Origin: Oscillospiraceae bacterium
GTDB taxonomy: Bacteria > Bacillota > Clostridia > Oscillospirales > Acutalibacteraceae
Reading direction: 5' to 3'
Assembly: GCA_902791335.1 (NCBI GenBank)
Contig: CADAVL010000010.1
Coordinates: 1 to 26,669, forward strand
DNA length: 26,669 nucleotides
The notes under the pieces are model-generated. The model ran no database searches, was not told the DNA's origin, and saw only the letters and a program-made list of their open reading frames with translations. Every line of letters begins with the position of its first letter. Position 1 is the stretch's first letter. Made by a program: the position numbers and the translations under genes. Positions 16,281 to 24,935 of the stretch are shown in pieces.

Positions 16281-16616
16281 TTGTATTACCTCCACATTCT
16301 ATTAGCTACTCGAATACAAGGTCGAATACAAGTATATCCTATCATTATAAGTGTCCAATAAAACGGACTTATGATTCGTCTTCGGGAAGAACATCCATAA
16401 AGATCAGCTGATTCTGGTATACTGCCGCAGCGGTAATCGGAGTAAGCAGGCATCTAAAAAAATGGTGAAATTGGGCTACACCAATATCATTGAGATCGGT
16501 GGAATTAATAGTTGGCCCGGTGAAACAGTCACCGGCGATAAGTGATAAAATCACAGAACAAGGAATGACTACCGGATATAATAAAGCTATAAAAAAGAAA
16601 ACAGGAGGACTTAAAT

Positions 16617-16922
16617 ATGTCTGCTATCAGTGTTAATAAAAATAATTTCAATCAAGAGGTTTTGAACTCGGACAAGCCCGTCCTGATGGATTTCTGGGCT
16701 CCCTGGTGTGGTCCTTGCCGCATGGTAGTTCCTCTGGTAGAGGAGATTGCCAAGGAGCGCTCCGATATCAAGGTTGTTAAAATTAATGTGGATGAGGAAC
16801 AGGAACTGGCTATGCAGTTCGGTGTGATGAGCATACCCACTCTGGTGGTTATGAAGAACGGAAAGATTGTCAATCAAGTCACCGGTGCCAGACCTAAGGC
16901 TCAGATTCTCGCCATGCTGTAA
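16617..16922 (+). CDS. trxA: Thioredoxin
   Basis: WAPWCGPCR active site, 101 aa, RBS AGGAGG. Confidence 0.9.
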
Positions 16923-16934
16923 GGAGGTGCAATG

Positions 16935-17255
16935 ATGAGCTTCTTCGATTTCCTGAAAGGCCCTGACATCAATCAGGGTGTCAAAGAGTATAGCGCCACG
17001 GATAGCGCAGTCCTGCTGGATGTTCGCACCCCCGACGAATACCGGCAGGGGCATATCCCCGGCAGTAAAAATGTTCCTTTGCAGTCCATTAGCAAAGTGG
17101 CCGGCATGATTGACAATAAATCTACCCCCATTTTTGTTCATTGTCTCAGCGGTGCAAGAAGCCGTCAGGCAACTGCTATTTTGCAGCAAATGGGTTATAC
17201 TAACGTGAAAAACATAGGCGGAATTTCCGCTTATACAGGAAAGGTAGAACGATAA
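16935..17255 (+). CDS. Single-domain rhodanese (sulfurtransferase)
   Basis: Active-site loop VHCLSGARS. ~106 aa. RBS AAGGAGG. ATG at 16932 or 16935. Confidence 0.85.
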   Translation: MSFFDFLKGPDINQGVKEYSATDSAVLLDVRTPDEYRQGHIPGSKNVPLQSISKVAGMIDNKSTPIFVHCLSGARSRQATAILQQMGYTNVKNIGGISAYTGKVER

Positions 17256-17256
17256 T

Positions 17257-18947
17257 ATGAAAGTTGTCATTGTAGGCGGTGTGGCAGGCGGTGCTACCGC
17301 TGCCGCCCGTATTCGCAGACTGAATGAGCAGGCAGAAATCGTAGTGTTTGAGCGGTCGGGATATATCTCCTATGCCAACTGTGGTCTGCCGTACTATATC
17401 GGTGATGTGATTACCGATCCCGAAGAACTGACCCTACAAACACCGGAAAGCTTCTTCTCCCGGTTCCTTGTAAACATGAAGGTGCGCCATGAGGTCACGG
17501 CTATCCATCCCGAAAAAAAGAAGTTACCGTGAAAAATCTGGAAACCGGTGAGGAGTTCGAGGAGAGCTATGACAAGCTGATTCTCTCTCCCGGAGCCAAG
17601 CCTACCCAGCCCCGGCTTCCCGGTATAGGAATCGGCAAGCTATTTACGTTGCGTACTGTGGAGGACACCTTCCGCATCAAAGACTACATTAACAAAAACC
17701 ATCCTAAATCCGCTGTACTGGCAGGCGGTGGCTTCATTGGATTGGAGCTGGCAGAGAACCTGCGAGAGTTGGGGATGGATGTCACCATTGTCCAGCGTCC
17801 AAAACAGCTTATGAATCCCTTTGATGCCGATATGGCTTCTTTCATCCATAATGAAATGCGTAGGGCTGGTGTAAAGCTGGCACTTGGTCATACCGTAGAA
17901 GGGTTTGAGGAAAGGGACGGCGGCGTGGATGTGCTGCTGAAAGAAGAACAGCCTCTCCATGCAGATATGGTAATCCTGGCCATTGGTGTTTCTCCCGAAA
18001 CCACCCTTGCAAAGGATGCCGGGTTGGAGCTGGGCATTAAAGGAAGTATTGTGGTCAATGACCGAATGGAAACCTCCATTTCCGACATCTATGCCGTGGG
18101 CGATGCGGTGCAGGTGAAGCACTTCGTCACCGGGAAGGATGCTCTGATCTCTTTGGCTGGCCCTGCCAATAAACAGGGACGAATCGCTGCGGACAACATC
18201 TGTGGCGGAGACAGCCATTATACCGGCTCCCAAGGCAGCAGTGTCATCAAGATCTTCGGCATGACTGCCGCTACTACCGGCGTAAATGAGACCAACGCCA
18301 GAAAAACAGGGCTGGATGTTGATACGGTTATCCTGTCGCCCATGAGCCATGCAGGTTACTACCCCGGCGGGAAAGTCATGACAATGAAGGTGGTCTTTGA
18401 AAAGGCGACTTATCGCCTGCTGGGTGCGCAGATCGTAGGCTATGAAGGTGTGGATAAGCGCATTGATGTGCTGGCCACCGCTATCCGGGCCGGAATGAAA
18501 GCCACGGAACTGAAGGATCTGGATCTGGCCTACGCACCGCCTTATTCTTCTGCGAAAGATCCGGTAAATATGGCTGGCTTTATGGTTGAGAATATCGCAA
18601 ACGGTGTTCTGAAACAATGGCATCTGGAAGATGCAGATCGCCTTCCTCGTGACGGAAGCGTAACTCTGTTGGACACCCGCACTGTGAAAGAATTCGCACA
18701 CGGACACATTGACGGCTTCTTTAACATCCCGGTGGACGAGCTGCGGGAGCGGCTGGGTGAGCTGGACAAGCGTAAGCCTGTCTACGTCATCTGTCAGAGC
18801 GGTCTGCGCAGCTACATTGCCTGTCGTATCCTGGCCGGAAACGGCTTTGACTGCTATAACTTCTCCGGCGGCTTTCGGTTCTATGATGCTGTGACCAATG
18901 ATCGCTGTCTCATTGAATCGGCTACGGCCTGCGGAATGGACAAATAA
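17257..18947 (+). CDS. cdr: CoA-disulfide / CoA-persulfide reductase with C-terminal rhodanese domain (CoADR-RHD). It is interrupted by a -1 frameshift in an A7 run at 17513-17519. This is either a pseudogene or a sequencing error.
   Basis: ORF 17257-17532 carries the FAD motif VVIVGGVAGGATAAARI and the redox Cys (SYANCGLPY). ORF 17529-18947 continues the pyridine-nucleotide-disulfide oxidoreductase fold and ends with a rhodanese domain (VYVICQSGLRS). Adding one A in the run restores IHPEKKEVTVKNLETGEEF. The combined length of ~563 aa is the expected size. Confidence 0.85.
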
Positions 18948-18949
18948 AC

Positions 18950-18997
18950 ATCCGCCGCATCTCTCCAACAATTTTGGTAGAGATGCGGCGGATTTTC
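18950..18997. terminator. Bidirectional intrinsic terminator with a 15-bp perfect stem, ATCCGCCGCATCTCT/AGAGATGCGGCGGAT
   Basis: The stem is followed by TTTCATCC on the plus strand. It lies between the convergent CoADR and ZIP genes. Confidence 0.7.
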
Positions 18998-19040
18998 ATC
19001 CTCTGACTGCAGCAAACATTTCAAACATCTTAATCACACT

Positions 19041-19796
19041 TTACCCCAAAAAGAAATTACTGACCAGCATCACACAGAATCCGGCCAGGAGCGCATAGGT
19101 TGCTCCGGTCTCGCTGCCGTGGGCATGGGTTTCGGGAATCATTTCATCACTGATGACATAGAGCATGGTTCCTCCCGCAAAGGCCAGAGCAAAGGGGAGA
19201 ATGGCCGAAGCAATGCTTACGGCCCAATATCCCAGAAGCGTACCGACGACTTCGATCAGCCCGGTCACCATGGCGCAGACAAAGGTTTTTACCGGGGATA
19301 CGCCTGCTGCCAGCATGGGCGCAATGATCACCATGCCTTCGGGGATGTTCTGCAGGGCGATACCGCAGGCGATCATCATCGCCTGCGCCGTGTCTTCACT
19401 TCCAAAGCTGACACCGGCGGCAATCCCCTCCGGCAGGTTATGGATCGCGATGGCTGTGACAAACAGCAATACCTTGTCAAGGTTGGCGCTGCGGTGTGTT
19501 TCCGTATCGGTTCCCACCAGCCTATGCAGGTGGGGAACCAGCTTATCAATGAGATTCAGGCACACCGCCCCAGTAAAGATCCCGATGATGGAAATGAGGA
19601 TCCCATGGGTTCCGCCATAATTGAGAGATGGCAGAATAAGTCCCAGTACAGCCGCAGACAGCATAACACCTGCCGCAAAGGACAGCACTATGTCGGAGAA
19701 TTTGTGGGAGATCTTCCGAAAGACAAAGCCAATGAGACTTCCAAAAATGGTCGCGCCCCCCACGCCGAGGGCGGTAAGCAATACGATTTTCATCAT
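19041..19796 (-). CDS. zupT: ZIP-family divalent metal (Zn/Fe) transporter, ZupT-like
   Basis: MMKIVLLTALGVGGATIFGSLIGFVF resembles the ZupT N-terminus. HNLPEGIAAGVSFG and ALQNIPEGMVI are the signature metal-binding helices. I set the start at ATGATG (19796/19793) rather than the track's upstream GTG. Confidence 0.8.
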   Translation of the reverse strand: MMKIVLLTALGVGGATIFGSLIGFVFRKISHKFSDIVLSFAAGVMLSAAVLGLILPSLNYGGTHGILISIIGIFTGAVCLNLIDKLVPHLHRLVGTDTETHRSANLDKVLLFVTAIAIHNLPEGIAAGVSFGSEDTAQAMMIACGIALQNIPEGMVIIAPMLAAGVSPVKTFVCAMVTGLIEVVGTLLGYWAVSIASAILPFALAFAGGTMLYVISDEMIPETHAHGSETGATYALLAGFCVMLVSNFFLG

Positions 19797-19812
19797 CAAC
19801 GATACAGGTCTT

Positions 19813-20472
19813 CTATTTATCAGAAAGTTCCTGCAATCTCCTTTCTTCACAAATCTCCACGATGCCCCGCGCCAGCTTCACCATACCCTCGTTCTGGAAA
19901 TAGCGAAGCATTCGGGTAACTACCTCACGGGCGGTGCCCATGTGGCCCGCAATGGTTTCATGGGTAATCTTGAGGGTGTTTGTTTCCTCTATGCTGCATT
20001 CCTCCAGCAGAAATTCTGCCAGCCTTTTATCAAAGCTTTTCCACATTATCTGCTCCATGAGCCACATAACCTCAGAAAAACGGGTAGCCATAATTTCGTT
20101 GGTAAAATTAGCTACCACAGCAGACTCTTTCATTAAGCGACCATAAGTGTCAGCAGAAATAACCCACATCGTGGTATCCTTCTGCGCCTCAATGGTGATC
20201 TCAAACTGAATGCTGTTCATCATACAGGAGGCGGAAAACAGGCAAATATCCCGATCAAACAAACGATAGAGGCTAATCTCCCGTCCTTCATCGGAAAGAA
20301 GATAGGCACGAAGCTGTCCGCTTTTTACCAGCAGAAGACCGGTACACTCCACAGTTCCGTTGTGAATCACAGTCCCCTTGTCCACTTTTCGTAAAACTGC
20401 ATTTTGCTCCAAAATCTGCTGCTGGGTCGGTGTCAGTTTGTTCCAAATTGGAAAATAGGATGAAAAATCCAT
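19813..20472 (-). CDS. Crp/Fnr-family transcriptional regulator (219 aa): cNMP-binding-like domain plus C-terminal HTH
   Basis: HTH region TLKITHETIAGHMGTAREVVTRMLRYFQNEGMV with an N-terminal beta-barrel. RBS AAGGAGG is followed 7 nt later by ATG at 20472. The rest of the 517-aa track ORF is antisense to the DUF134-NifX gene. Confidence 0.85.
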   Translation of the reverse strand: MDFSSYFPIWNKLTPTQQQILEQNAVLRKVDKGTVIHNGTVECTGLLLVKSGQLRAYLLSDEGREISLYRLFDRDICLFSASCMMNSIQFEITIEAQKDTTMWVISADTYGRLMKESAVVANFTNEIMATRFSEVMWLMEQIMWKSFDKRLAEFLLEECSIEETNTLKITHETIAGHMGTAREVVTRMLRYFQNEGMVKLARGIVEICEERRLQELSDK

Positions 20473-20516
20473 GGATACACCTCCTTGAATACACATAGTA
20501 TAAAATAATTTATGGC

Positions 20517-20565
20517 ATCTGTCAATAATTTCGTTGACATATAGGAAATGGAGATGTATAATGGT
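20517..20565. promoter_or_regulatory. Divergent back-to-back promoters. Plus strand: TTGACA-N17-TATAAT (20533-20561). Minus strand: TTGACA-N17-TATACT.
   Basis: The two -35 hexamers form TGTCAA-N8-TTGACA. They drive the Crp/Fnr gene leftward and the DUF134 gene rightward. Confidence 0.5.
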
Positions 20566-20607
20566 CATATAAATGACATATGCCGTAAATAATATGGTGG
20601 TGAATCT

Positions 20608-21378
20608 ATGCCAAGACCGAGAAAATGCAGAAAAGTTTGTTGTTTGCCGGATAATGATGGTTTTGTTCCGGTTCGTGGCGGCGAGGAACTGACTCCCATT
20701 GTCCTGAATGTGGATGAGTATGAATCCATTCGCCTGATTGACCGTGAAGGTTTTTCTCAGGAGCAATGCGGAGAATATATGCGTATTGCCAGAACAACGG
20801 TTCAGCAGATTTATGCAGCTGCCCGCAAAAAACTGGCCGATGCGCTGGTTGAGGGACTTCCTCTGCGAATCGAGGGAGGGGATTTTACACTCTGCAGCGG
20901 AAACAGCGCAGCCTACGGGTGCAGAAATTGCTATCAGCAAAAAATCCATCCGATGCACGAAAAACCGAAAGGAGATCATATTATGAGAATTGCAGTCACT
21001 TATGAAAACGGAGAAATCTTTCAGCACTTCGGTCACACCGAACAGTTTAAACTCTACGATGTGGAAGATGGAAAAATCATTTCGTCTGAGGTTGTGGATG
21101 CTGGCGGCAGCGGACATGGTGCACTGGCAGGCGTCCTGCGTGCACTGAAGGTGGATGCCCTGATCTGCGGCGGTATTGGCGGCGGTGCCCAGATGGCACT
21201 GAGCGATGTGGGTATCCGGCTTTATGGTGGTGTTTCCGGCAACGCTGATGCAGCAGCAGAAGCACTGGCAGCAGGCGAGCTGGACTTCAACCCCAATGTC
21301 CGGTGTGATCATCACGACCACCATGGGGAAGGTCACTCTTGCGGTTTTCACGGCTGCGGCCATCACTCCTGCGACTGA
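20608..21378 (+). CDS. Fusion of a DUF134 (UPF0251) putative DNA-binding domain with a NifX/NifB-like (dinitrogenase FeMo-cofactor family) domain, plus a C-terminal His/Cys-rich tail. 256 aa.
   Basis: MPRPRKCRKVCCLPDNDGFVP is the DUF134 signature. MRIAVTYENGEIFQHFGHTEQFKLYDV...ALICGGIGGGAQMAL is the NifX-like fold. The tail is CDHHDHHGEGHSCGFHGCGHHSCD. An internal AAAGGAGA-N7-ATG sits at the domain junction (~20975-20992). Confidence 0.75.
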   Translation: MPRPRKCRKVCCLPDNDGFVPVRGGEELTPIVLNVDEYESIRLIDREGFSQEQCGEYMRIARTTVQQIYAAARKKLADALVEGLPLRIEGGDFTLCSGNSAAYGCRNCYQQKIHPMHEKPKGDHIMRIAVTYENGEIFQHFGHTEQFKLYDVEDGKIISSEVVDAGGSGHGALAGVLRALKVDALICGGIGGGAQMALSDVGIRLYGGVSGNADAAAEALAAGELDFNPNVRCDHHDHHGEGHSCGFHGCGHHSCD

Positions 21379-21460
21379 AATAGGTGATTAAGTCACGGAA
21401 TATGTGTCGTGATTTGATAAAATATAGTTAAAGGAGGCGGTAAAACCTAAGTAATAAATC

Positions 21461-21489
21461 TTGATAAATTCACAGAATTGTGATATAAT
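21461..21489 (+). promoter_or_regulatory. Promoter TTGATA-N17-TATAAT whose spacer holds the palindrome TCACA-GAAT-TGTGA
   Basis: TTGATA 21461-21466, TCACA 21470-21474, TGTGA 21479-21483, TATAAT 21484-21489. The operator-like 5-4-5 palindrome overlaps the core promoter of the hydrogenase-rubrerythrin gene. Confidence 0.45.
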
Positions 21490-21556
21490 TATTGTGTATA
21501 AACTGGCAAACAAAAACAATTTCAGAATAAACAATTAAGAATAAAGGAGAAATGAA

Positions 21557-23620
21557 ATGGCAGAGCATTTACCACTATCTGTTCGGGTGCCGATTGAAGC
21601 GGATAACCCAAGTATTTGCCGCAAAGAAGAGCTTTGCATCAAGTGCGGACAATGCCGTGAGGTCTGCACGAATGAAATCGGTGTTCACGGTACATATTCC
21701 TTCGAGCAAACCGAAGGAAAGGCGATCTGTATCCACTGCGGACAGTGTGCAAACGTCTGTCCTACCGCAAGCATTACCGAGGTCTACGAATACCCGGACG
21801 TGAAGGCGGCTATCGCAGATCCCGATAAGATCGTTATCGTCAGCACGTCCCCCTCTGTGCGCGTTGCTCTCGGTGAAGAGTTTGGAATGGCGAAAGGAAG
21901 CTTCGTGCAGGGTAAAATGATCGCCCTTATGCGTGCTCTCGGTGCCGATTACGTCCTGGATACCAACTTTGCCGCAGACCTAACCATCGTTGAGGAAGCA
22001 AGCGAGCTTGTTCGTCGCATTACGACAGGAGATAAGCCCCTGCCTCAGTTTACAAGCTGCTGCCCTGCGTGGGTGAAGTTTGCTGAAACCTACTATCCCG
22101 AAATGCTCCCGCACGTATCAACTGCCAAGAGCCCCATCGGTATGCAAGGCCCCACTATTAAGACCTACTTCGCCCAGAAGATGGGTATTGATCCGAAGAA
22201 GATCGTTAACGTAGCACTTACCCCCTGTACTGCGAAGAAATTCGAGATCCGACGCGAGGAAATGAACGCCGCAGGCAAGAAGCTCGGTATCCCCGAAATG
22301 CGCGATATGGACTACGTTGTTACAACTCGCGAGCTTGCTCTTTGGGCAAAGGAAGCAAAGATCGACTTTGCTTCGCTTGAGGATAGCGATTACGACCGCT
22401 TTATGGGTGAAGCATCGGGTGCAGGCGTGATCTTCGGTAATACCGGAGGTGTTATGGAGGCAGCGCTTCGTACTGCATACTCCTATATCACGGGTGAGAT
22501 CCCCCCGGGCGCACTTCTTGACCTTAAGCCCGTTCGCGGATATGAGGGCATCAGAGAAGCAAGCCTTGACGTCAAGGGAACCACTGTAAACGTAGCTGTT
22601 GTTTATGGTACAGCCAACGCTCGCAAGCTCATCGAACTAATCAAGAGTGGCGAGAAGAACTACCACTTCGTTGAGGTGATGACCTGTCCCGGCGGATGCA
22701 TCGGCGGTGGCGGTCAGCCCCGTGATTTTGCGGCAGATGCTAATGCAAGCCGTAAGGCAAGAATCGAGAGCCTTTACAAGAGAGATGCCTCTTTGACTCT
22801 TCGTTCGAGCCACGAAAACCCTGAGATAAAGGAGCTTTACGAGGAATTTTACGGCAAACCGCTCAGTGAGCTTGCGGAAGAAATGCTCCATACTATGTAC
22901 ACTGATCGCTCAAGCGACATCAATAAAGAAATTATAAAAGGAGAAACAAAGAAAATGGAAAAATGGAAATGCACAGTCTGCGGTTACATTCACGAAGGCC
23001 CTATGACACCTGATTTTAAGTGCCCCATCTGCAAGCAGCCTGCCAACAAGTTTGTGAAGATTGAGGATGCTGCGGCTCCTGCAAAGAATCCCTATGCAGG
23101 TACCAAAACCGAGAAAAATCTGTGGGAAGCCTTTGCTGGTGAGAGTCAGGCCCGGAACAAGTACACCTACTTCGCCTCCGTCGCCAAGAAAGCCGGCTAC
23201 GAGCAGATCGCCGCGCTGTTCCTGCATACTGCACAGAACGAGATGGAGCACGCCAAGCTGTGGTTCAAAGCTCTGGGCGAGCTGGGTGATACTGCCGAGA
23301 ACCTGCTCCATGCTGCTGAAGGTGAGAACGCCGAGTGGACAGATATGTATGACCGCATGGCTCGTGAAGCTGATGAGGAGGGATTCCATGATCTGGCTGA
23401 ACAGTTCCGTGGCGTAGCTGCCATTGAGAAGATGCACGAGGAGCGCTACCGCAAGCTTTTGAGCAACGTGGAGGCTATGCAGGTGTTTGAGAAGAGCGGC
23501 GTTACCATCTGGGAGTGCCGTAACTGCGGACATATCGTAGTAGGAACCAAGGCTCCTGATATCTGCCCTGTCTGCAAACATCCTCAGGCATTCTTCGAAG
23601 TGCGTGCGGAAAACTATTGA
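21557..23620 (+). CDS. hydA: [FeFe]-hydrogenase catalytic subunit fused to rubredoxin, rubrerythrin and a C-terminal rubredoxin-like domain. 687 aa.
   Basis: Two ferredoxin-like Cys motifs ([23 protein letters not shown]). H-cluster motifs are [17 protein letters not shown] and [16 protein letters not shown]. Rubredoxin CTVCGY...CPICKQP follows, then rubrerythrin diiron helices ([11 protein letters not shown]...NEMEHAKLW...[11 protein letters not shown]...IEKMHEERY), then C-terminal CRNCGH...CPVCKHP. RBS AAAGGAGA. Confidence 0.85.
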
Positions 23621-23639
23621 TAAAACGGAGGAAATTAAA

Positions 23640-24017
23640 ATGAGTGCAAAGTTTTATATCTGCCGTCATTGCGGCAATCTGGTTGGTATGATTCACGACG
23701 CAGGTGTTCCCATGATGTGTTGTGGTCAGAAAATGGAGACTCTTGAGCCTAACACCGTAGAAGCCAGCGGCGAAAAGCATCTGCCTGCTGTTACTGTTGA
23801 AGATGGTGCAATCCATGTCAATGTGGGTTCTGTAGATCATCCTATGCTTCCGGAGCATTTCATCGAGTGGATCTATGTCCAGACCGAAAACGGTGGTCAG
23901 CGTAAGGTTTTGAAGCCCGGTGACGAACCCCATGTCACCTTCTTCCTGGGAGACGATAAAGCAGCAGCTGTCTATGCTTATTGCAATCTCCACGGCTTGT
24001 GGAAAACTGAAATTTAA
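23640..24017 (+). CDS. dfx: Desulfoferrodoxin (2Fe superoxide reductase)
   Basis: N-terminal desulforedoxin-like CRHCGN...MCCGQ. C-terminal SOR ligands EKHLP...H...CNLHGLW. RBS GGAGG is followed 8 nt later by ATG at 23640 (the track start at 23604 has no RBS). Confidence 0.85.
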   Translation: MSAKFYICRHCGNLVGMIHDAGVPMMCCGQKMETLEPNTVEASGEKHLPAVTVEDGAIHVNVGSVDHPMLPEHFIEWIYVQTENGGQRKVLKPGDEPHVTFFLGDDKAAAVYAYCNLHGLWKTEI

Positions 24018-24034
24018 CATGGAGGTTCTTGTAA

Positions 24035-24544
24035 ATGAACGAAAAAGTACATGCGCTTATCAATCAACAGATAAATAAGGAATTCTATTCCGCATACCTT
24101 TATCTCAATTTTTCAAACTATTTCGAGGAAGTCGGGCTTGACGGCTTTGCCAACTGGTATAAAATTCAGGCTCAGGAAGAGCGTGACCACGCCATGCTTT
24201 TCTATCAGTACCTGCAAAACGAAAACCAGAAGGTAACGCTTGAAGCCATTGACAAGCCTAATCTGAATGCAGCTTGCCATATGGATGTTTTGAAGGCGGG
24301 TCTTGAGCACGAAAAATATGTAACCTCGCTGATTAATGATATCTATAGTGAGGCTTACGAAGCAAGGGATTTCCGTACCATGCAGTTCCTCGATTGGTTT
24401 GTGAAAGAACAAGGTGAAGAAGAAACCAATGCAAATAATTTGATTTCCAAAATGGAACTCTTTGGCTCCGATCCCAAAAGCTTGTATATGCTCAATCAGG
24501 AATTGGCAGCACGAATTTACTCTGCTCCTTCTTTGGTTCTTTAA
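24035..24544 (+). CDS. ftn: Bacterial non-haem ferritin
   Basis: LINQQINKEFYSAYLYLNFSNYF...QAQEERDHAMLFYQYL ferroxidase-centre helices. 169 aa. RBS GGAGG. Confidence 0.9.
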   Translation: MNEKVHALINQQINKEFYSAYLYLNFSNYFEEVGLDGFANWYKIQAQEERDHAMLFYQYLQNENQKVTLEAIDKPNLNAACHMDVLKAGLEHEKYVTSLINDIYSEAYEARDFRTMQFLDWFVKEQGEEETNANNLISKMELFGSDPKSLYMLNQELAARIYSAPSLVL

Positions 24545-24582
24545 TCACTATAGCCTATAGATGATGGAAGTATAAAAGGCAG

Positions 24583-24619
24583 TATGCCGCCTGTCGGTTT
24601 TCCGGCAGGCGTTTTTTTA
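24583..24619 (+). terminator. Intrinsic terminator after ferritin: GCCGCCTGTCGG/CCGGCAGGC stem followed by GTTTTTTT
   Basis: Stem at 24585-24594 and 24602-24610 with one mismatch. U-tract at 24611-24618. Confidence 0.6.
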
Positions 24620-24692
24620 CAGAGGATGCCTATGATTTAAGATAATGCCAGCTTTATCTATTTACATCGCATAGATGAAGTAGAACTGAACA

Positions 24693-24935
24693 TTGAGGAT
24701 AAGGCAGCAATATATCCGTTATAATAAAAAGCAAAACAGTTACTCGTGGGAATATCAACCCAAAGGATATATGGAGTTACCCGCCAAAATCAAATGGGTC
24801 AAAGAACAGGGATTATGGCAACAGGTTCGTAAATATTATTTATACAAGAAGAACACAAACGATAACCCTAATAAACATTCAAGAACAATCTTTGCAGAAA
24901 CCATTCACGAAATATGGCAGAAGAATAAAGATTAA
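24693..24935 (+). CDS. Hypothetical Lys/Tyr-rich small ORF (80 aa) between two terminators. The coding status is doubtful.
   Basis: Open frame only. The start is non-ATG (TTG) and RBS support is weak. An internal ATG (MELPAKIKW) is preceded by AAAGGA with short spacing. I could not recognise a domain. Confidence 0.2.
   Translation: MRIRQQYIRYNKKQNSYSWEYQPKGYMELPAKIKWVKEQGLWQQVRKYYLYKKNTNDNPNKHSRTIFAETIHEIWQKNKD

Follow-up and report, generated by a model that had tools for sequence, protein, structure and literature searches.

In the 26,669-nt stretch of DNA analysed here (hereafter the window; contig CADAVL010000010.1 of an Oscillospiraceae bacterium), the gene at positions 20608–21378 joins a DUF134 domain, predicted to bind DNA, to a NifX-like domain with a His/Cys-rich tail. 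With moderate confidence, we propose that it encodes an autoregulated one-component regulator with a metal-sulfur sensor domain, and that it is a nested gene with two products. Two conserved features carry this reading: an internal Shine-Dalgarno sequence (SD) with an ATG, kept at the nucleotide level exactly at the domain boundary, and a palindromic operator that co-occurs with DUF134 genes and with iron-sulfur (Fe-S) and redox genes. The combination of DUF134 with the Nitro_FeMo-Co domain is already present in databases, whereas the apparently new elements are the nested start, the operator and the regulon; a literature search for functional studies of DUF134, UPF0251, PF02001, COG1342 or COG1433 yielded passing mentions only, and we found none of these three features described for DUF134/UPF0251. 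Coordinates of all features are given in Table 1.

Both halves of the protein match their families far above the Pfam cut-offs, residues 3–94 with 67.2 bits to PF02001 (cut-off 27) and residues 134–221 with 70.6 bits to PF02579 (cut-off 26.3). The N-terminal half is a clear member of DUF134/UPF0251 (PF02001, COG1342), having the MxRPxKxR...P...F.P motif at its N-terminus and the helix-turn-helix (HTH) of that family. The AlphaFold model, built from a 55-sequence alignment (mean predicted local distance difference test, pLDDT, 79.8; predicted template modelling score, pTM, 0.51), consists of two confident domains separated by a disordered linker (residues 100–117) and followed by a disordered tail (residues 236–256). 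In the linker, pLDDT is below 50 at residues 100–107 and 113–117, and family alignments contain many indels there. The HTH helices (residues 35–46, 51–58 and 62–82) superpose locally on region 4 of Mycobacterium tuberculosis SigD, which binds the –35 element (3vfz; root-mean-square deviation 0.6 Å over 46 columns, Foldseek E-value 0.1), and the same half has matches below the cut-offs to the Pfam families Sigma70_r4 (18.3, cut-off 24.1) and Sigma70_r4_2 (18.3, cut-off 25.7). The C-terminal domain finds PH0822 (target-normalised TM score 0.85), TM1816, MJ0327, the orange protein, NafY and NifX in Foldseek, and also has sequence matches in PDB. It does not reach the NCBIfam equivalog cut-offs for NifX (15.5, cut-off 112), NifB (23.7, cut-off 344) or MrpORP (71.7, cut-off 450), the last model being matched by this domain only. 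It has the motif FQHFGHTE, where both His of CxHFGHCE are present and both Cys are absent, and C233-D-H at the beginning of the tail. The 24 tail residues include eight His, four Cys, three Asp and one Glu, with no Arg or Lys; this character, rather than the exact sequence, is kept in homologs down to 37% identity, and Cys233 is found in at least 90% of family sequences. An earlier note on this DNA had described one in-frame open reading frame (ORF) of 256 aa with a DUF134 half, a NifX-like half and a probable metal-binding tail. The sequence, the ORF list, both Pfam matches and the fold matches bear out the first three of these claims, and the metal-binding character predicted for the tail is supported too. 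The cysteines of the DUF134 half and its surroundings (C7, C11, C96, C108) were also considered as a family-wide Fe-S or Zn site and rejected, C7 and C11 being replaced in members at 37–60% identity.

At the boundary between the halves, the SD AAAGGAGA is followed by a 7-nt spacer and an ATG at 20983–20985, encoding Met126, with which, in the AlphaFold model, strand β1 of the C-terminal domain begins. The earlier note had seen this arrangement before MRIAVTYENGE and suggested that the downstream domain could be made separately, and comparison of genomes supports the suggestion. Relatives of the protein are encoded in at least 591 species-representative genomes; here and below, counts of codons, junctions, neighbors and promoters out of 80 refer to the best 80 of these loci. 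The junction consensus is [K/R/E]-G-[E/D/A/G]-x-x-M. Its Gly is encoded by GGA in 79 of the 80 loci and by GGG in the other one, whereas GGA makes up 33% of the remaining Gly codons of the same genes. The next codon begins with G in all 80 loci, though the residue may be E, D, A or G, and the preceding codon ends with A or G in every locus. Among 47 conserved four-fold-degenerate columns, the junction Gly has the lowest codon entropy, 0.19 bit, compared to 0.95 for the next-lowest column and a median of 1.67. The internal ATG is retained in 79 of the 80 loci, the spacing from GGAG to the start being 8 nt in all 79. In 35 clusters with amino acid identity below 75%, GGA, RGGAG and the ATG are kept in 34, and other Gly codons are near saturation across these clusters. 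Even a homolog at 45% identity retains AAAGGAGA-N7-ATG, and two distant homologs lacking the Met also lack a GGA-based SD, as one reads GGC and the other has no SD.

The predicted pairing of the junction with the anti-SD (median –8.9 kcal/mol, every locus at –8 or below) is close to that of the annotated start (–9.9), other internal in-frame ATGs having a median of –3.7. In the window, the internal SD pairs more strongly (–9.0 kcal/mol) than the one at the annotated start (–6.2 kcal/mol). A ranking of these energies over all codon positions is uninformative, as neighboring positions share one SD in the sliding window, and codon-level tests were used instead. The mRNA is on average least structured in the 60–70 nt around the internal ATG (z up to +1.6), with a contribution from the A-rich composition. 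As the SD and the ATG are conserved at synonymous positions across 35 diverged clusters, their retention is well beyond chance and suggests that a working ribosome-binding site is being selected for at the nucleotide level; the second half is probably made also as a separate protein of 131 aa. Two loci depart from the pattern. At L056 the internal ATG reads ACG with the SD intact, and at L073 the codon after the ATG has changed from AGA to TGA, so that the DUF134 ORF ends in ...KGDNIM* and the NifX-like part has no obvious start.

In-frame internal starts are known in the E. coli genes infB, clpB and cheA and in Tn5, which encodes a transposase and its inhibitor, the short form without the DNA-binding region modulating the long one. 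There, as predicted here, an SD and an ATG inside the coding sequence (CDS) yield a C-terminal isoform without the N-terminal domain; the difference is that here the predicted short product corresponds to a complete protein, free-standing in other genomes. It is as if two genes of an operon had been fused and the second had retained its start.

The most serious alternative, though in our opinion an unlikely one, is that only the full-length fusion is made, the internal SD and ATG being a relic of an ancestral two-gene operon, a translational pause assisting folding of the N-terminal domain, or a consequence of a structural need for the K-G-E/D...M residues. Split, translationally coupled forms that may represent the ancestor do exist; K121, G122 and M126 are conserved as residues too; SD-like strings occur elsewhere in the CDS, e.g., at the codons of the conserved EGGD motif, which, like other G-rich strings, scores as SD-like; and some lineages lack the site. 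However, a relic would decay at synonymous positions, yet GGA is fixed in 34 of the 35 diverged clusters, and the residue following the Gly is chemically variable while the first base of its codon is invariably G. The joint loss of the SD and the ATG, and a low level of mRNA structure at the junction resembling that of a start site, also argue for a functional second start.

The fusion itself belongs to a large conserved family widespread in gut Clostridia, in which fused and split forms are both common. A word-indexed search yielded at least 8000 homologs, all with E-values of 1e-5 or lower; the top 120 all share the two-domain architecture at about 256 aa, their source name being simply "DUF134 domain-containing protein." The best 80 genome loci, from Lachnospiraceae, Oscillospiraceae, Phascolarctobacterium and others, are all full-length uninterrupted fusions. 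Among the carriers that can be cultivated are Eubacterium ramulus ATCC 29099 (L061), Blautia schinkii (L015) and Oscillibacter valericigenes (L046). An exhaustive search of the representatives found 6570 relatives, including free-standing NifX-like and free-standing DUF134 proteins. The former have their first residue aligned to Met126 and carry the same kind of tail (P0151, 72% identical and truly solitary; L081). In split operons, the DUF134 gene contains the SD in its 3' end and overlaps the NifX-like gene by ATGA, as observed for P0226 and P0269. In a less biased metagenome sample, anchored on the operator motif described below, 26 DUF134 ORFs are fused and 44 contain DUF134 only, among the matches listed. 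The view of the earlier note that the two domains are usually encoded by separate neighboring genes is thus only roughly true, all of the best 80 loci being fused. Nor is the fusion an unusual local event or the result of a stop codon lost here, a possibility that the note wanted checked; the fused family is large and conserved. One homolog of 158 aa (P0264) lacks the NifX-like core, so that DUF134 runs straight into the His/Cys tail ("...LDYNPDVRCSHHEHEHG..."); it may be a deletion variant that arose naturally or an artefact of assembly.

The strongest functional clue to the fusion gene comes from a conserved operator upstream of it and from the putative regulon, both of which the earlier note had missed. 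The 8-mer GACATATG (CATATGTC on the other strand) is present in 73 of 79 upstream regions, compared to 0.46 expected by chance. In other loci it forms an inverted pair, GGCATATGTCAA-N8-10-TTGACATATGCC, the usual fuller layout being GGCATATGTCAA-N8-10-TTATTGACATATGCCnTWAAT, with the two CATATG centers 22–23 bp apart. The TTGACA of the right-hand copy is the –35 box of the fusion gene, TAnnnT following 16–18 nt further in 65 of the 73 forward sites, and the left-hand copy serves the divergent promoter. In the window, the fusion-gene promoter matches the consensus at all 12 positions, and a third operator copy lies downstream of its –10 box; at this position, relatives have the perfect palindrome GGCATATGCC. 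The same three-site layout is found at the split-gene locus L082. Operator sites also precede other split DUF134 genes, and distant fusions without a Crp neighbor have a full or one-mismatch copy upstream; none was found near the solitary NifX-like gene of L081. Compared to its close relatives, the window has accumulated point changes weakening the SD of the annotated start (from GGAGGTGA to GGTGGTGA) and the left half-site (from CATATG to CATCTG). In the most divergent fusion, L079 (57% identity), the recognition helix (residues 61–69) reads ISRSTVQ where others have ARTTVQ, and the palindrome GGTATATACC replaces GGCATATGCC; in this single case, operator specificity may have changed together with the helix. 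A search for covariation of operators and recognition helices found this one clear variant, too few to use.

Scanning of metagenomes with the extended motif TTATTGACATATGCC identified at least 127 instances in at least 120 loci; the counts that follow are among the matches listed. A DUF134 gene starts within 400 nt downstream of 51 of the 127 instances. The motif stands in a promoter-like context in 88 loci; DUF134 is present in 68 of them and a Crp-like gene in 15, and 13 of these 15 contain DUF134 as well, the other two being 2.6-kb contigs. Among the 32 loci without promoter-like context, DUF134 is present in one and Crp in none. On the simplest reading, DUF134 would bind the operator and repress both its own promoter and a small set of Fe-S and redox genes.

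Dyads of the form TTGAC-N4-GTCAA are classic FNR/Dnr-type sites. The operator could instead be bound by the Crp/Fnr-family neighbor or by its homolog elsewhere in the genome; the fusion would then be a regulated target, e.g., a metal or cluster carrier, with another role for the DUF134 part. We regard this possibility as unlikely, though it has several observations on its side. The dyad is seen among the sites; the divergent Crp gene, which the earlier note correctly placed next to the fusion, shares the operator region with it in 29 of the 80 loci; and the metagenome scan finds the motif upstream of Crp genes too. Nevertheless, Crp/Fnr binding fits the co-occurrence data less well than DUF134 binding, given the 68 and 15 loci out of 88 and the short contigs carrying the only two Crp genes without DUF134. 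The operator also precedes DUF134 genes with unrelated neighbors (L086–L089), and in L085 it is directly upstream of DUF134 although Crp is one gene away. Finally, the site overlaps the –35 box and the spacer, and is not at the –41.5 position typical of activation by Crp-type factors.

The genes behind the operator are consistent with the regulatory role proposed for DUF134. In metagenomes they encode free-standing NifX-like proteins (four of which combine FQHFGHT with a His/Cys tail), DUF5320 proteins, Mrp/NUBPL and MinD-ferredoxin ATPases, ferredoxins, a radical-SAM protein, aldehyde dehydrogenase and Crp-like regulators. In genome loci, additional motif copies precede thioredoxin, ferredoxin and an operon with an Mrp fusion. 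The immediate neighbors of the fusion gene across species are enriched in rubredoxin-rubrerythrin, thioredoxin, disulfide oxidoreductases, AhpC, ferritin and desulfoferrodoxin. The conserved operator thus points to a small regulon of iron-sulfur and redox genes. In metagenome loci L093, L105, L151, L160, L167, L179, L189 and L205, DUF5320 proteins (MPRxDGTGPMG..., Gly/Arg-rich) and an IssA-like NifX protein stand behind the operator, the one in L205 having an IssA-like Gly/Arg tail with a long GRGMG-repeat. As they share the operator, these two families, also uncharacterised, are linked to the putative DUF134 regulon.

In the regulatory scheme that we propose, the sigma-region-4-like HTH of DUF134, most likely as a dimer, would bind the palindrome GRCATATGYC, or its extended form TTATTGACATATGCC. 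Operator copies over the –35 boxes of the own and the divergent promoters, and one more past the –10 box, imply repression. The NifX-like domain and the tail would act as the sensor, responding to an iron-sulfur or other metal-sulfide species or to a metal ion. From the conserved internal SD and ATG, ribosomes could make the NifX-like domain with the tail alone, that is, a protein equivalent to those encoded separately behind the same operator in other genomes. The free module may serve as a carrier or buffer of the metal or cluster, or may titrate the sensor domain of the full-length protein. The earlier note had hinted at a metal- or cluster-sensing regulator, and the presence of an HTH and a NifX-like domain, together with the operator co-occurring with DUF134, Fe-S and redox genes, supports this idea.

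The proposed ligand relies on precedents among IPR003731 proteins. The domain of MrpORP binds a [3Fe-4S] cluster, the HFGH and CDH motifs being the proposed ligands, and cluster-binding domains of this type have conserved CxHFGHCE and C-terminal CDH motifs (PMC6345978). The orange protein Orp8 binds a Mo-Cu-sulfide cluster, and NifX, NafY and NifB bind the nitrogenase cofactor precursors NifB-co/FeMo-co (PMC6345978, PMC5524996). IssA stores thioferrate with the help of its C-terminal tail, which in the IssA clade is cationic and glycine-rich (PMC5524996). By analogy, a metal-sulfur cluster or a metal ion is the most likely ligand of the NifX-like domain studied here. It shares the fold with MrpORP, the orange protein, IssA and TM1816/PH0822 (TM score up to 0.85), the HFGH and C-D-H motifs with MrpORP, the combination of a globular domain with a low-complexity tail, functional in IssA, with the latter, and the genomic company of Mrp, MinD-Fer4 ATPases and ferredoxins with the orange protein clusters. 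On the other hand, it lacks the Cys residues of the MrpORP motif and scores far below the MrpORP, NifX and NifB equivalog cut-offs, its tail is acidic and rich in His and Cys, whereas that of IssA is cationic and Gly-rich, and, compared to other non-nitrogenase IPR003731 proteins, it is fused to the predicted DNA-binding domain DUF134.

As a regulator, the protein would resemble IscR, NsrR, RirA, FNR and OrpR in outline, combining an HTH with a cluster or metal sensor, autoregulation and an Fe-S and redox regulon. Its domains are, however, unrelated to theirs, being a sigma-4-like HTH and a NifX-like putative sensor rather than Rrf2, Crp or sigma-54 enhancer-binding proteins. OrpR of the Desulfovibrio orp operons is reportedly a precedent for redox and Fe-S control of orange protein genes. 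With sigma-70 region 4, the DUF134 half shares not only the superposition on SigD but the presence of the –35 consensus TTGACA in its candidate operator. At the same time, its scores are below the Pfam cut-offs, other sigma regions are absent from the protein, and the operator extends past TTGACA (…TATGCC), while sites of the GGCATATGCC type are without TTGACA.

Several points weigh against the proposed regulator and its nested product. The likeness to sigma region 4 is sub-threshold in Pfam, and the Foldseek E-value of this sub-match is 0.1; with a pTM of 0.51, the inter-domain geometry of the model is unreliable. Cys7 and Cys11 of DUF134 are not conserved family-wide, and the ligand of the putative sensor is suggested by analogy. 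The best form of the operator, TTGAC-ATAT-GTCAA, is a 5-N4-5 dyad typical of Crp/Fnr-family sites, and the frequent divergent neighbor means that Crp could be the binder. For the internal start, the exceptions L056 and L073 and the two distant members without the site suggest that it is dispensable in some lineages, and the short product is a predicted one.

Table 1. Features of the window around the DUF134-NifX fusion gene (positions in the window)
Feature	Position	Strand	Description
Full-length fusion CDS	20608–21378	+	256 aa, ATG start; DUF134, linker, NifX-like domain and His/Cys tail; ORF list, Pfam, homologs
DUF134 (PF02001) domain	20614–20889	+	Residues 3–94; three-helix HTH (residues 35–82) resembling sigma-70 region 4; Pfam, AlphaFold, Foldseek
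Inter-domain linker	20896–20982	+	Residues 97–125; length and sequence variable except for the last five codons; pLDDT, alignment indels
Nitro_FeMo-Co (PF02579/IPR003731) domain	21007–21270	+	Residues 134–221, structural domain approximately 126–232; FQHFGHTE at residues 137–144, Cys187
His/Cys-rich C-terminal tail CDHHDHHGEGHSCGFHGCGHHSCD	21304–21375	+	Residues 233–256; starts with the C-D-H motif
Internal SD AAAGGAGA	20968–20975	+	Encoded by Lys121-Gly122-Asp123
Nested ORF from the internal ATG (Met126)	20983–21378	+	Predicted 131-aa NifX-like protein with His/Cys tail
Fusion-gene promoter TTGACA-17-TATAAT (12/12)	20534–20562	+	–35 box inside the right operator half-site TTGACATATagg
Left operator half-site TTGACAGATGCC (1 mismatch)	20514–20525	-	–35 box of the divergent Crp promoter (20525–20497)
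Third operator copy ATGACATATGCC	20573–20584	+	Past the –10 box of the fusion gene and ahead of its SD
SD of the annotated start GGTGGTGA	20596–20603	+	GGAGGTGA in close relatives
Divergent Crp/Fnr-family regulator gene	19813–20472	-	219 aa; Pfam HTH_Crp_2, cNMP_binding, Crp
[FeFe]-hydrogenase-rubredoxin-rubrerythrin gene	21557–23620		Downstream of the fusion gene; 687-aa single ORF; hydrogenase part of the window 21458–22935

The fusion gene belongs to an island of approximately 8 kb (16397–24700) that contains an unknown ORF, a CoA-disulfide reductase-rhodanese gene, a ZIP transporter, Crp, DUF134-NifX, rubrerythrin, desulfoferrodoxin and ferritin, the last two located further downstream and the ZIP and CoA-disulfide-reductase-like genes on the Crp side. 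Positions 16397–21457 and 22936–24700 have 95–97% nucleotide identity to loci of Candidatus Merdisoma, Fusibacillus, Oribacterium and an Oscillospiraceae metagenome-assembled genome, isolates and assembled genomes both being represented, which suggests recent horizontal transfer of this oxidative-stress island among gut Clostridia. The segment between them, 21458–22935, encodes the hydrogenase part of the downstream ORF, which consists of a group-A [FeFe]-hydrogenase (two Fer4 domains, the large-subunit C-terminal domain and the small-subunit domain), rubredoxin, rubrerythrin and a rubredoxin-like domain. This segment is absent from the close relatives, where a plain rubredoxin-rubrerythrin gene begins with AAAGGAGG-N9-ATG. 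In the window, homology ends exactly at this start codon, the ATG reads AAG, and an orphan SD AAAGGAGG is left at 21430–21437, with a new promoter (21461–21489) and the hydrogenase fusion beyond it. The orphan SD, the lost ATG and the end of homology (21430–21457) mark a recombination breakpoint.

The position of the fusion gene immediately upstream of the hydrogenase-rubrerythrin gene, from which the earlier note derived a possible regulator or cofactor chaperone for the hydrogenase, is as it described. A dedication to this operon nevertheless seems very improbable. The genes are adjacent in the window with no terminator predicted between them, but the hydrogenase gene is preceded by a separate promoter that lacks the operator (no copy with up to two mismatches was found upstream of it), and hydrogenase is not a recurrent neighbor of the fusion gene across the 80 loci. 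As the segment is missing from the close relatives, which have rubredoxin-rubrerythrin with the break at its start codon, the association is local and recent rather than a family property. Two dyads near the breakpoint are candidate operators of some other regulator: GTCACGGAATATGTGTCGTGAT (TCACG-N10-CGTGA) at 21393–21414, which is conserved downstream of the fusion gene, ahead of the rubrerythrin SD, in relatives, and TCACA-GAAT-TGTGA at 21470–21483, inside the spacer of the hydrogenase promoter.

At the other end of the island, the CoA-disulfide-reductase/NADH-oxidase-rhodanese gene (approximately 17257–18947) has a frameshift near 17512–17520, where one nucleotide is deleted from a poly-A run compared to L001, putting some 90 N-terminal codons out of frame with the rest; either the gene is a pseudogene or the deletion is a sequencing error in the homopolymer. 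Despite this frameshift elsewhere in the window, origin of the fusion by a sequencing or assembly artefact that removed a stop or a frameshift between two genes is rejected as practically untenable, given the same unbroken ORF in 80 of 81 independent genome loci and in thousands of metagenome proteins.

Anaerobes, including the dominant Clostridia of the human gut, have abundant DUF134 proteins and non-nitrogenase NifX-like (IPR003731) proteins, two groups with almost no assigned function. Our analysis supplies a testable system with an operator, a candidate Fe-S and oxidative-stress regulon, a candidate sensor domain and two products predicted from one ORF. If the proposal holds, it would define a new family of metal- or cluster-responsive regulators, and the gene would be a clean natural example of a fused operon keeping its second translation start. 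More broadly, and tentatively, since we would sooner doubt this extension than accept it, DUF134 proteins might be the missing regulators of the anaerobe-wide "ORP-like" genes of Fe-S and metal-sulfide trafficking (NifX-like/IssA-like, DUF5320, Mrp/NUBPL, MinD-ferredoxin, ferredoxin, thioredoxin, rubrerythrin). A sigma-region-4-like HTH would then act on a –35-centered operator, the NifX-like cluster-sensing partner being fused or separate, and the nested start would set the ratio of sensor to regulator. The hydrogenase-rubrerythrin enzyme, in turn, could couple H2 oxidation directly to peroxide reduction. As the island is apparently mobile between gut genera, it bears on how strict anaerobes handle oxygen and iron stress.

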